From contig JAPLLX010000006.1 of assembly GCA_026387335.1 (NCBI GenBank), forward strand, positions 44,949-108,948: a stretch of 64,000 nt of DNA. The letters are read 5' to 3'. The DNA is from Candidatus Omnitrophota bacterium. Lineage in GTDB: Bacteria; Omnitrophota; Gorgyraeia; Gygaellales; Profunditerraquicolaceae. The notes under the pieces are model-generated. The model saw nothing but the letters and a program-made list of their open reading frames with translations. It had not been told where the DNA came from and searched no databases. This document shows, one piece after another, positions 4,662-50,519 of the stretch; position 1 is the stretch's first letter; each line of letters opens with the position of its first letter. The position numbers and the translations under genes were made by a program.

Positions 4662-4736
4662 AGGGACGGTTCTCAACTCAAAGCAAAAGTGTCCCCTGTT
4701 AGGGGACACTTTGAGATTAGCTTGAGAACCGTCCCT
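4662..4736 (-). promoter_or_regulatory. 75-nt compound stem-loop immediately upstream of the dinB Shine-Dalgarno site; it includes a terminator-like hairpin plus U-tract
   Basis: It has 15-bp outer arms AGGGACGGTTCTCAA/TTGAGAACCGTCCCT, a 6-7-bp middle stem CTCAAAG/CTTTGAG, and an inner hairpin GTGTCCCCT-gtta-AGGGGACAC. On the minus strand this is followed by UUUUGCUUUG. Confidence 0.6.
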
Positions 4737-7944: not shown

Positions 7945-10900
7945 TTATTTTTTTATATGGTATTCCTGTAATGACTTAAGACAAATATCGCTTCCCTGCA
8001 TTGCCTCAATCGCTTCCACGCTGGCCCGGGCAGCGGCCATAGTGGTAATATAGGGCAATTTATGCTGAATAGCCATTATCCGGATATAGCTGTCATCAAA
8101 CTTGCTGGCCCGGCCAACAGGAGTATTTAAAATTAAATTAACCTCCTTATTTTTAATCGCATCGGCGATATTGGGCCTACCCTCATGCAGCTTTTTAATA
8201 GGAGAGCTCTCTATGCCTTTGCCTTTAAGAAACGCGCCGGTGTTTTCAGTGGCAAAAATAGAAAACCCTAATTTTTTAAGCCGGCGGGCAATATCCACTA
8301 CCTCTTCTTTATCTTTATCATTCACCGTCAGTAATACACTTCCGGAAAGCGGCAGCTTTAAGCCGGCTGCTTCCTGGGCCTTATAAAAGGCCAGGCCAAA
8401 GGTATCGGCAATCCCCATTACCTCTCCGGTGGCTTTCATCTCCGGCCCTAAAACCGGGTCAACTTCCGGAAACATATTAAACGGAAAGACCGCTTCCTTT
8501 ACCCCAAACCAGGCAAGTTTGCGTTTTTCATCTAATTCCGGAAAATCCTTTAATTTTTTCCCCAGCATTAATTGGGTGGCGATACGCGCGATGAGGACCC
8601 CGGTGACTTTTGAGACAACCGGAACAGTGCGGGAAGCGCGCGGGTTTGCCTCTAAAATATAAACCTTATCATTGCAAATCGCGTATTGAATATTCATTAA
8701 ACCCACGACTTTCAAAGTAGTAGCGATTTTATGGGTATACTTCCGGATAGTTTCTAAATGCTCCGGTTTAATCGAGCGGGATGGAATCGCGCAGGCGGAA
8801 TCTCCGGAATGAATCCCTGCGTATTCAATATGCTCCATAATTGCGGCGACAAATGTATCATTGCCGTCCGAGAGCGCGTCTACTTCAGTTTCCAGCGCGT
8901 TATCCAGGAAGCGGTCAATAAGCATCGGGAATTCGGGACGCACCTGTATTGCTTCCAGCGCGCATTTACGCAGCATAGCCTCATCGTAAATGATCTCCAT
9001 TCCCCTGCCGCCTAAAACAAAAGAAGGCCGCACCATTAAGGGATAGCCTATTGCGTTAGCGATCTTAACTGCCTCATCCAGCGAACGGGCAGTCCCGCTC
9101 TCCGGTTGGGGAATATCTAACTCGATCATTTTCTGCCTGAAGAGTTCGCGGTCCTCGGCAAAAGCGATACTTTCAGGAGTCGTCCCTAAAATCTTTACCC
9201 CGCATTCTTTTAACTCCTGGGCAATGTTTAAGGGAGTCTGGCCGCCAAACTGCACAATCACACCAGCGGGCTTTTCCTTTTCATAAATTGCTAAAACATC
9301 TTCAATGGTGAGCGGCTCAAAATAAAGTTTATTGGAAGTATCGTAATCGGTAGAGACTGTTTCCGGATTACAATTAACCATTATTGACTCCAAACCAGCG
9401 TCGCGCAGCGCGAAAGCCGCGTGCACGCAGGTATAATCAAATTCAATACCCTGGCCGATACGGTTAGGCCCGCCGCCTAAAATCATAATCTTCTTACGGC
9501 TGGATACCGGAACTTCGTCCTTTCCCGGGCTGTAAGTAGAATAATAATATTTGGCATCTTCTACCCCGCTCACCGGGACTGCCTCAAACCTGGCGATTTT
9601 ACCCAGCTTAACCCTGCGCAGCCTAACCTCTGATTCCTTTACGCTGAAAAGTTTGGCCATATATTTATCCGCAAAACCCCATTCCTTGGCTTTGAGCAAC
9701 TGGGCATCGGGTAATTTATTCCAGGTATAGGTTAAAAGTTTTTCTTCAAAATCCACTAACTCTTTTATCTCATTTATGAACCACTCGCCGATATACGTCA
9801 TCTCATACAATTCATTAACGCCCATTCCTTTACGCAAGGCTTCATACATAAGAAAAATCCGTTCACTGGACGGCATGCTCAAGCGCTGTTTTAACTCATC
9901 GAGAGATAATTCTTTGAAATTTTTTGCTCCTCCTACGCCATACCTGCCGATTTCCAGCGAACGTATGGACTTCTGGAAGGCCTCCTTAAAAGTTTTACCT
10001 ATACTCATCACTTCGCCGACTGCTTTCATTTGGGTCCCTAAAATATCTTTTGCCTTGGGGAATTTTTCAAATGCCCAACGGGCGAATTTAATTACCACAT
10101 AGTCACCGCTAGGGGTATATTTTTCCAGGGTCCCATCCCTCCAGTAAGGGATTTCATCCAACGTAAGGCCTGCGGCAAGTTTTGTTGACACAGAAGCAAT
10201 CGGAAAACCGGTTGCCTTTGAGGCCAATGCCGATGAACGCGAGGTGCGCGGGTTAATTTCAATTACAACCAAACGATCATCTTTTTTATTATGCGCAAAC
10301 TGGATATTGGTTCCGCCAACTACTCCAATCGCGTCAACAATCTTATAGGATAACTCCTGCATCCTAATCTGCAACTCCTGCGGGACAGTAAGCATAGGCG
10401 CAACGCAGAAACTGTCTCCGGTATGTACACCCATCGCGTCTATGTTCTCAATAAAACAAACAGTGATCTTCTGGTTTTTATTATCCCGCACTACCTCAAG
10501 CTCAAGTTCCTCCCATCCGATTACCGCCTCTTCCACTAAAATCTGATGGACTAAACTCATATTTAACCCGCGCTGGGCAATCACTCTTAATTCTTCAACA
10601 TTGTAGACTATCCCGCCGCCGGTCCCGCCTAATGTATATGCCGGCCGGATTACTACCGGATAGCCTAATTTTGAGGCAATGACTTCAGCTTCTTCTACAC
10701 AAAGAGCAATCTCTGATTGCGGAACAGGAATACCTAATTGTTTCATAGTTTGCTTAAAGACTTCCCGGTCCTCTCCGCGCTCAATCGCGTCAGCTTTGAC
10801 TCCGATTACTTCCACTCCGTATTTTTTCAAAACCCCGGATTTAAAAAGGCTGGAAGCCAGGTTCAGGCCGGTCTGACCGCCTAAATTCGGAAGTAAGGCG

Positions 10901-40654: not shown

Positions 40655-40828
40655 TTATTTTCTTCTCTCTTTGGCTTTCTTTCTCTTGCGCTCGCTGGGC
40701 TTCTCGTAATGTTTGCGATCCCGGACTTCTCTGAGGATACCTTCCTGCTCTATCTTCTTCTTAAAACGGCGCAAGGCTGACTCAAAAGACTCGTCTTTCT
40801 TAACTTCGACTTCTGACAATATAATCAT
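40655..40828 (-). CDS. rpsU: 30S ribosomal protein S21 (not in the ORF track)
   Basis: Translating the reverse complement gives [61 protein letters not shown] lies upstream of the ATG. Confidence 0.85.
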
Positions 40829-40889
40829 CTCCTTTCATTTAGAAATATTGGGCTAAAATCTTCAATATTTGGTTTTAATATACCACTCT

Positions 40890-41300
40890 TTACAGGGAGT
40901 GTCAACAGCTTGTATATCCTATTAGCGTCTGCCTTGTCTTGTTTCTCGCAGGGCCGCACGATTTTCCCCAGCGTGGAAAATCGTGCTCGGCTACTCGGCT
41001 GCGCTCTCGCTAATTCTTGGATAGCGGGCGAACCCTGCCCGCTCCGCCTGCGTTACGCCCTGCTCCGAAACAAACCAAGTCATCCGCTAATGTAATCTAT
41101 AGATATTTTGCTTGAGGGTATTGTTAAGCGTGCAATTAGAAATTTTTCGGCAAATGTGTGCAAGGCTTTACGGCGAGTGTAGGCAATACCCTTTAGCGTG
41201 AGGAACCTTGCGCTGCCGGAGCGAGCCGTAAACCGTAGCACACGGCGAAAAATTTCGCACGCGAACAATACCCGAAGAGCGAGATATCAATAATTATGTA
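40890..41300. other. GC-rich, hairpin-dense intergenic stretch; candidate structured ncRNA. Strand and identity are unknown.
   Basis: GC is locally much higher than the flanks. Perfect hairpins are CACGATTTTCC/GGAAAATCGTG (40957-40985) and GCGGGC/GCCCGC (41024-41042). A long imperfect inverted repeat spans about 41140-41270. Confidence 0.35.
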
Positions 41301-41324: not shown

Positions 41325-42020
41325 TTATTCGACTTCAAAAGAGATTACTACGTTGAAGGAGAGCTGGGAATAGTCCAGTTCTTTGGGGAATTTCGGGAAG
41401 GGAGAGGCGTTTTTCACGCTGGCTAAAGCAACATCTTTAAGATAAGGCGCGCCTTGAGACTTTTCCTCCACTAACCGCACATCTTTAAGATATCCGGCGC
41501 TTGAGATTATAAAAGTAATATATACCTCTCCGGTATCGTTGCGGTTATAATTTTGATAGGCTGCCCGGCGGATTTTTTCGCGCACAATCTGATAATAGCT
41601 TATATAAGAAGGATTTCCGATTTTACCCATATCCACCGCCGGCAGGGTTATCTTCTTCTTTATCGCGATTATATCCGGCTTAATTAAGGCCGGCCGCTCA
41701 AGGATGAATTCTTTACGGGCGGCCTGCATATTGGATTTAGAGATAGCCTCCCTCTCTACAAAAGGCGGAGGATTCCTCTTCTCCATGTTAAGCTTAGAAG
41801 ACAAATCTAACAACGGTTCCCTTTTTGGTGGACTGGCCTTTTTTAGGCCCTTATTTAATTCCGGCTTTTCAGTTTTCGGCTGCTTAATATAATTGATTTC
41901 AATCTTGCGGTTCTCCTGCGCAGAAGAAAAAAACAGGTAACCCGAATTTTGGGCCACTATAACAGCGTGGACCGTAAAAGAGGCCAGAAAAGCAATTTGA
42001 AAACTGCGGTTGGATAACAT
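41325..42020 (-). CDS. tonB: TonB-like energy transducer
   Basis: It has a TM helix and a Pro/Lys-rich spacer. The C-terminus ...GEVYITFIISSAGYLKDVRLV... is a TonB_C fold. Confidence 0.7.
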   Translation of the reverse strand: MLSNRSFQIAFLASFTVHAVIVAQNSGYLFFSSAQENRKIEINYIKQPKTEKPELNKGLKKASPPKREPLLDLSSKLNMEKRNPPPFVEREAISKSNMQAARKEFILERPALIKPDIIAIKKKITLPAVDMGKIGNPSYISYYQIVREKIRRAAYQNYNRNDTGEVYITFIISSAGYLKDVRLVEEKSQGAPYLKDVALASVKNASPFPKFPKELDYSQLSFNVVISFEVE

Positions 42021-50242: not shown

Positions 50243-50470
50243 AAAAAACCCGATCCGGCATTTCTGCCTGAATCGGGCTGCACCCTAATAATACTATGGC
50301 CCATTCCACGAGGCGAATCTACTGATATAGGCAGGTCTTCTGGCTTGGGGTCGCTCTACTCGCTTTTTAGCCTTCCCATCCAAATCCGGACAGTGGCTTA
50401 ACTCTCTAGCTTTCGTCACCCTTACAGCGGCGGGACCGCATCAGCTTATCACTGATTTCCCTAACCTATA
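50243..50470 (-). ncRNA. Cobalamin (AdoCbl) riboswitch with an intrinsic-terminator expression platform
   Basis: The minus strand reads GGGAAAUCAGUGAUAAGCUGAUGCGGUCCCGCCGCUGUAAGG ... B12 box GCCACUG ... GGGAAGGC ... GCCAGAAGACCUGCC. It ends with the hairpin CCCGAUUCAGGCAGAAAUGCCGGAUCGGG followed by UUUUUUG. Confidence 0.85.
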
Positions 50471-50519
50471 ATTAAATGGCTTTGCCTAAATGAAGGCAAA
50501 CCATGGCCTTGCGGCCAAT

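Follow-up and report, generated by a model that had tools for sequence, protein, structure and literature searches.

A hairpin-dense tonB–rpsU spacer in a Candidatus Omnitrophota genome: probable side-by-side insertion of two undescribed MITE/REP-like repeat families

Among the bacterial MITEs that fold into long hairpins are the Correia/NEMIS elements of Neisseria, RUP and BOX of Streptococcus pneumoniae, the ERIC/IRU sequences of enterobacteria, bcr1 of the Bacillus cereus group and Nezha of cyanobacteria. The REP/BIME palindromes and the REPINs are mobilised by RAYT (Y1/HUH) transposases, and the PATEs are derivatives of IS200/IS605; REPs measure 20-40 nt and REPINs about 100 nt. A further comparator is the attC site of integrons, in particular the homogeneous attC of sedentary chromosomal integrons such as the Vibrio cholerae repeats. 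The Omnitrophota are an uncultured and poorly annotated phylum, for which the searchable literature describes no interspersed repeat families. Here we describe a hairpin-dense spacer in one Candidatus Omnitrophota lineage, and consider it probable (roughly 60%) that it holds one member each of two different, undescribed families of MITE/REP-like interspersed structured repeats, A (~165 nt) and B (~185 nt), both non-coding and non-autonomous, which were inserted side by side.

The window, by which we mean the whole 64-kb stretch of DNA analysed, is densely coding with almost all genes on the - strand, and its largest non-coding gap is the 496-nt spacer between a tonB-like gene and rpsU (Table 1). 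The first-pass annotation had described this spacer as a GC-rich, hairpin-dense, non-coding island and as a candidate structured RNA of unknown class. The hairpin-dense stretch is real, and every feature that was named is present in the sequence, with corrections in detail. The perfect hairpin, put at 11 bp, has a stem of 12 bp (GCACGATTTTCC / GGAAAATCGTGC, 40956-40967 / 40975-40986). The hairpin GCGGGC-gaaccct-GCCCGC is present at 41026-41044 but is not the pairing conserved in homologues, which is that of H4 and P3; it competes with these two helices and is specific to the window copy and its subtype. The large imperfect inverted repeat spans 41116-41273 and includes the three pairs of arms listed in Table 1, and a second, outer inverted repeat (40921-40945 / 41067-41091), missed earlier, encloses the first two hairpins in one fold of ~170 nt. 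The rise in GC content applies to the first half of the region (0.545 at 40900-41099 vs 0.385-0.47 in neighbouring windows) but not to the second, at 0.46-0.485. The placement between tonB and rpsU stands, and the label ‘cobalamin operon’ for the genes upstream is plausible: on the - strand, which also carries tonB, a cobalamin riboswitch (50313-50504, 98.9 bits) precedes that gene by 9 kb, and the ORFs in between point the same way.

Table 1. Positions of genes, elements and structural features in and around the tonB–rpsU spacer, numbered from the first letter of the window.
Feature	Position	Strand	Description
rpsU (ribosomal protein S21)	40655-40828	-	PF01165 on orthologues; downstream neighbour
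rpsU promoter	40877-40905	-	-35 TTGACA 40905-40900, 17-nt spacer, TG-extended -10 TATATT 40882-40877; 11/12 matches
Element A	40922-41090	+	169 nt, long stem with three-way junction; nhmmer 140.6 bits
A, P1a-d 5' strand	40922-40953	+	TTAGCG TC TGCCTTG T CTTGTTTC TC GCAGGG; terminal-inverted-repeat-like, pairs with 41058-41090
A, hairpin H2	40956-40986	+	12-bp stem, conserved loop CCAGCGT (family consensus CCNGCGW)
A, P3/H4 arm of three-way junction	40998-41047	+	conserved unpaired segment ACCCTGCCC
A, P3	40998-41000 + 41003-41004 paired with 41041-41042 + 41045-41047	+	
A, H4	41007-41010 / 41028-41031	+	TCGC paired with GCGA
A, P1a-d 3' strand	41058-41090	+	CCCTGC TCC GAAACAAA C CAAGTCA TC CGCTAA
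Element B	41101-41288	+	~188 nt, one long imperfect hairpin, family B member
Inverted-repeat arms GGGTATTGTT/AACAATACCC	41116-41125 / 41264-41273		part of large imperfect repeat
Inverted-repeat arms GAAATTTTTCG/CGAAAAATTTC	41139-41149 / 41246-41256		part of large imperfect repeat
Inverted-repeat arms GTGTGC...TTTACGGC	41156-41174 / 41225-41243		part of large imperfect repeat
Spacer, B to tonB stop codon	41289-41324	.	36 nt; diverged form also in L085, missing from empty site in L084
tonB-like gene	41325-42020	-	Pfam TonB_C; stop codon = one boundary of insertion

The 496-nt intergenic region is strongly structured, with folding z-scores of -8.5 (+ strand) and -5.6 (- strand), and 0 of 100 shuffles were as stable. 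It is also non-coding, as had been proposed: indels among homologues are not multiples of three, and covariation of the helices scrambles the translations of the two ORFs of 61 and 62 aa, which are not conserved as protein and which we reject as small protein genes. The lack of any match to RNase P, tmRNA, SRP or 6S RNA, previously judged by eye, is borne out by Rfam and ARAGORN. With Rfam 15, both strands of the structured part gave no family at E <= 10; at the gathering score, no family fell on A or B, and the only matches in the whole window were the cobalamin riboswitch and one tRNA; seven other loci with family members gave nothing at E <= 1; and ARAGORN found no tRNA or tmRNA in the region. 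We also considered 6S RNA, RNase P and SRP, as well as Y RNA and retron msr/msd, and set them aside in view of the lack of Rfam support and of any Ro or reverse-transcriptase gene nearby; TTAGCG resembles a retron branch site and the CS-6 motif of ssoA, which looks like a 6-mer coincidence.

The gene order tonB-rpsU-TIM barrel is widely conserved across the Omnitrophota (80 species loci), and conservation of the spacer in relatives is limited to the rpsU promoter and a short leader (40829-40914). This promoter, near-consensus and of the sigma-70 type, is sited between the structures and rpsU, outside both elements and at the boundary of the insertion, and is kept in L002, L082, L084, L085 and L086. 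Because the tonB-rpsU gap measures mostly ~70-130 nt in the 80 species, the ~380 nt of extra sequence present here is a lineage-specific insertion. The TIM-barrel protein encoded next to the spacer has a 100% identical counterpart in a Candidatus Omnitrophica MAG. The closest relatives at this site share 77-81% identity in the neighbouring TIM-barrel protein, and each has its own arrangement: L084 is an empty site, in which the tonB stop is followed by TAATAGG... and then by the -35 hexamer; L082/L083 have an unrelated GC-rich hairpin and, after it, a T-run in the spacer; L085 retains decayed remnants of B together with a short form of A, oriented as in the window; and L086 carries a full A in reverse orientation with another kind of long hairpin behind it (B2, see below). 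Because these loci and the window differ at the exact site, the tonB-rpsU site has been a target on more than one occasion. Searched with a covariance model of A, the 80 Omnitrophota (GTDB) species loci gave no copy.

What had been taken for a single RNA of 400 nt is two separate modules, each belonging to a repeat family of its own. The family orientation of A (TTAGCGTCTG...CCGCTAA) reads on the + strand of the window, antisense to tonB and rpsU, and covariance model R1 gives the window copy 156.5 bits on this strand vs 29 on the other; scores across the family are ~150-177 bits forward vs 30-40 reverse. At 0.59, the GC content of A is well above that of the genome (~0.42). Its basal stem has four segments that are nearly invariant in sequence across copies, and its terminal inverted repeats (40922-40945 / 41067-41090) are 80% complementary. 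In the interior, homologues have at least seven different compensating stem sequences in H2 around an invariant loop, P3 has at least seven different compensating helix sequences among 25 aligned copies, helices 5 and 6 show both-side changes in seven of nine pairs, and the unpaired bases TCGCTC and ACCNTGCCCGCTC are invariant.

This structure was built from hand-anchored helices on an alignment (A2) of the window copy and 24 homologues, in place of an RNAalifold structure of the raw MAFFT alignment that was wrong in part; a covariance-model alignment (A4), which mixes forward matches with reverse-strand shadows, was left out of the pair counts. Over the 40 column-consistent pairs, 91.5% of cells are paired (80.2% in shuffles), 21 pairs have both-side changes and the covariation score is 0.30 (0.10 in shuffles), and for each of the latter two measures 0 of 500 shuffles scored as high; slid controls were only 26-44% paired. 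Such a combination of invariant loop and junction bases with freely covarying helices is the hallmark of a nucleic acid that functions in folded form.

Element B has termini of the form GATATTTTGC...GC(G/A)A(G/A)ATATC and terminal inverted repeats GATATTTTGC...GCAAAATATC, and its MFE on the + strand is -93.5 kcal/mol. Asymmetric internal loops are conserved within the hairpin (ATTA; AAGG opposite AACCGTA), and enrichment in GC is weak. Six further full-length copies were found by nhmmer, the identical pair in L089 and L100 being counted once, and among the seven sequences (alignment A3) 16 of the 45 consensus pairs have compensatory changes.

A scan of metagenome contigs with a 19-mer from the 5' arm of A yielded 45 loci, ~30 of them with true homologues of the whole 160-170-nt element and 15 with chance coding matches; nhmmer and the covariance model together give 34 forward-strand copies of the family. 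Copies of A and B occur in both orientations at unrelated intergenic sites between unrelated housekeeping genes: for example, the elements of L125 lie between a Memo and a DUF1844 gene, two genes that are directly adjacent in the window. Several contigs carry more than one copy of A (four, one of them truncated, on the 6-kb contig L087, and two each in L097, L099, L103 and L129), whereas the near-identical copies in L093, L111, L120 and L115 lie in flanks that are unrelated. Copies within one contig are diverged, not near-identical, so that some may be old and maintained. The 64-kb window holds one A and one B, and neither BLAST nor nhmmer nor mismatch-tolerant patterns found a second copy of either in it. 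Where A and B co-occur, their order and strand are as in the window and they are usually 4-57 nt apart; in L089 and L126 they are separated by 770-930 nt with an ORF between. These A-to-B units are antisense to the flanking genes at six of seven independent sites.

Family A also includes derivatives: truncated copies (L088, L107), mini hairpins with only the terminal stems (L004, L119) and a 92-nt A-short subfamily (L085, L092, L106). That derivatives with nothing but the termini recur indicates that, as in MITEs, the essential cis part is the termini. Small perfect hairpins are nested in H2 of A in L095 (2-186) and L125 (510-696) as insertions of 20-28 nt, which suggests secondary insertion or expansion within elements. 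No recurrent mobility gene, whether transposase, integrase or other, was found among the 328 ORFs of element-bearing loci; three scans of viral contigs returned only chance coding matches, and BLAST against plasmids and phages gave no match. A and B are thus undescribed, having no Rfam family and no match in plasmids, phages, viral contigs or the searchable literature.

Most full-length copies have TA at both ends, the next base outward being variable, and the queA stop codon is regenerated as TA+G at the element terminus. These TA flanks and the replacement of the queA stop fit insertion at TA without proving it: the TA could belong to the inverted repeat itself, and the empty site of L084 is too diverged to separate this from a target duplication. 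Element termini that themselves form the queA stop codon, either as TAG from A's TAGCG or as TGA from B's TTGATATTTTGC, are seen in L099 (~1544-1550), L115, L117, L127 and L129, and in L089 (~10241-10248) and L126.

In all, A or B lies at the 3' end of queA in nine loci. The queA-tgt spacer is a hypervariable island (L087, L089, L097, L099, L103, L126, L129) whose cargo differs between genomes and includes SIR2-like, HEPN-AbiU2, DUF5677, PDC-S31 and PDZ lipoprotein genes as well as Gp49/HTH (HigBA-like) pairs, bracketed by inverted copies of A or by A and B. At the other end of the island, only 8-12 nt separate A from the start codon of tgt. Repeats that build up in a permissive island would explain the bracketing just as well.

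Other hairpins were seen in the same genomes. Palindrome family C, at 4662-4736 of the window (AGGGACGGTTCT...AGAACCGTCCCT, 36-nt arms), has a core, GGGACGGTTCT/AGAACCGTCCC, that recurs as paired hairpins across many species loci of the Omnitrophota (L004, L005, L016, L019, L020, L082/83), in L005 and L082/83 exactly within the tonB-rpsU spacer, and looks like a phylum-wide REP- or terminator-like hairpin. The long-hairpin family B2 (~230 nt, arms GCTGCTGGCAAG...CTTGCCAGCAGC) takes the place of B after A; it is found in L086 (~2495-2722) and on the reverse strand of L124 (~1490-1760), with pieces in L093, L120 and L106. In L004, a (CT)n microsatellite of ~40 nt (~1330-1375) starts a predicted secreted-protein ORF just downstream of the mini A-type hairpin and a promoter-like site.

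Whether such folds act as DNA or as RNA can be approached through the strand signals that they carry. The defined helices of A contain 939 Watson-Crick, 29 G·U and 22 A·C pairs; with G·U about as rare as A·C, the counts favour neither strand as the RNA. In MFE folds of both families, G·U counts are equal on the two strands, and the more stable strand is the reverse complement for A (27 of 27) and the forward strand for B (7 of 7), though A and B share a strand. No conserved promoter or terminator was found at the element ends. A is sense-oriented directly after the queA stop codon and antisense elsewhere; sense copies have eight G·U and two A·C pairs, and antisense copies 11 and 18, a weak tendency of wobble pairs toward the gene-sense strand (Fisher p = 0.03, from counts that are small and non-independent). 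Compensation so nearly confined to Watson-Crick pairs would fit quasipalindrome correction from a template, or selection that keeps a DNA strand able to fold.

Against this background, it seems unlikely that A and B are functional structured RNAs, that is, a new multi-copy ncRNA family or a cis-acting UTR module, transcribed from a + strand promoter of their own or as part of neighbouring mRNAs and acting through the three-way junction and loops, for instance in protein binding, mRNA 3'-end protection, termination or insulation. The strong covariation of A around invariant loops and junctions (21 both-side pairs, with shuffles and slid controls far behind) argues for such a role, as do the 16 compensatory pairs that B accumulates in just seven sequences while keeping its asymmetric loops, the orientation-specific conservation of sequence in the bit scores, the GC-richness of A, the weak wobble excess on the gene-sense strand, and the position of A in relatives within the queA 3' UTR and close upstream of the tgt start codon. 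Yet the tonB-rpsU site lacks the elements in most relatives and has A reversed in L086; a conserved promoter or intrinsic terminator is absent; 29 G·U vs 22 A·C pairs is unlike typical RNA families; derivatives that have lost the whole interior and kept the termini recur; A and B energetically prefer opposite strands; and Rfam has no match. A dedicated ncRNA gene at this locus is for its part unlikely, the sequence being absent from the site in most relatives, multi-copy, found in both orientations and devoid of a conserved promoter or terminator and of a strand asymmetry of G·U over A·C; the part of the first-pass annotation that holds is its fallback, a novel element. As for the long structured rpsU leader that it also considered, or a ribosomal-protein autoregulatory element, the map position 5' of rpsU speaks for it, but we give it almost no weight: because the structures are upstream of the conserved rpsU promoter they are not a leader, L084 has the same promoter at an empty site, L002, L003, L004 and L034, whose S21 proteins are 96-98% identical, have nothing that resembles the structured part of this spacer, and homologues of the elements adjoin unrelated genes.

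The cargos of the queA-tgt island raise another reading, in which A (with B) is a folded-DNA recombination site, integron-attC-like or dif-module-like, that bounds exchangeable gene cassettes, the cargo-less A-B pair of the window being an empty or relic cassette junction. The hypervariability of the spacer, with single-gene cargos between inverted copies of A or between A and B, is consistent with this; L099 and L103 have both flanks and both A copies in common and differ in cargo; and structure is kept while helix sequence varies, with pairing almost purely Watson-Crick as in a folded DNA site. We nevertheless regard it as very doubtful. The attC cores (RYYYAAC...GTTRRRY at the ends) are absent from A, whose ends are (T)TAGCG...CGCTA(A) with GTT/AAC only internal and of the wrong polarity, and are half-present in B, which has GTTAAGC at one end only; an integron attC is thereby rejected. 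Orientations are mixed within one array (A+, A-, A-, A- in L087), no integrase or other tyrosine recombinase was seen in any fetched locus, most copies are solitary and cargo-less between housekeeping genes, and repeats may just accumulate in a permissive island. Quite unlikely, too, is a broader version in which A and B are no passive repeats but form a new class of folded module, ssDNA recombination sites or structured RNAs, whose junction and loops would be recognised by a putative Omnitrophota enzyme that delimits and exchanges defence and toxin-antitoxin cassettes, as at the queA-tgt island. Such a cassette system would resemble integrons or dif modules but use unrelated sites, and the pair in the window would be one of its empty junctions.

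Interspersed repeats of the MITE/REP type are the reading that we prefer. Like bacterial MITEs, A and B are small (169 and ~188 nt, within the 100-200 nt size range and under ~500 bp), non-coding, and bounded by terminal inverted repeats that fold the whole element into a long hairpin; they are intergenic, often just past stop codons, and occur in either orientation, with two to four copies on some related contigs; they differ in presence or absence between close relatives at orthologous sites (L084 empty, the window filled, L086 reversed, L085 with remnants); and they share with MITEs the occurrence of deletion subfamilies and, presumably, co-transcription with neighbouring genes. Unlike MITEs, they have no cognate IS, transposase or autonomous element that we could find among the 328 ORFs of their loci or in viral contigs, plasmids and phages, the TA duplication is only putative, and copy density is modest outside a few hotspots. 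The interior of A, with its three-way junction, invariant loops and covarying helices, is also more elaborate than that of a typical MITE and exceeds what terminal repeats need.

With the REP/BIME, REPIN and PATE palindromes, A and B share features of a different kind: mixed and nested clusters at gene 3' ends, conserved asymmetries of the arms, and what may be a bias of orientation with respect to genes or replication, as in the antisense A-to-B units. Recognition of the palindromes as folded ssDNA and a secondary role as mRNA 3'-end stabilisers or terminators would be further, putative parallels. A REP/REPIN-RAYT unit proper is rejected on size, units of 165-190 nt with branched, complex interiors standing against palindromes of 20-40 nt or doublets of ~100 nt; moreover, no RAYT or TnpA gene was seen in the fetched loci, and no conserved GTAG-type tetranucleotide was identified in A or B. 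The likeness to attC lies in the conservation of structure over a variable sequence, in folding that is almost only Watson-Crick, in length (attC reach ~140 nt) and in a location next to small accessory, toxin-antitoxin and defence cassettes. The elements differ from attC in lacking R''/R' core sequences, in the mixed orientation of arrays, in the lack of any integrase or attI found with them and in that most copies have no cassette.

On the MITE/REP-like interpretation, A and B would spread, or would once have spread, as DNA. It is plausible that an enzyme encoded elsewhere recognises the conserved termini TA-GCGTCTGCCTTG... / ...CAAGNCANCCGC-TA, possibly as a folded single strand, and that insertion prefers a TA where genes end in A/T-rich sequence, frequently right at the stop codon; quasipalindrome repair (hairpin-templated correction) and/or selection for a foldable single strand might then keep the arms complementary. 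The A-B pair at this locus is probably incidental and without a dedicated function. Were tonB transcripts to read through, it would fold into a highly stable structure in their 3' UTR and could thereby insulate the tonB operon from rpsU, and its role would be, at most, that of such a structure between B12-riboswitch-linked transporter genes and rpsU.

For the Omnitrophota more broadly, families A and B account for a class of long intergenic islands, GC-rich and dense in hairpins, which without them would time and again be taken for ncRNA genes. The two families are also markers for strain-level insertion polymorphism, and they flag a hypervariable queA-tgt island in which defence genes are bracketed by repeats. 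If a dedicated enzyme recognises the folded A, this would suggest a new mechanism of mobility or cassette exchange.
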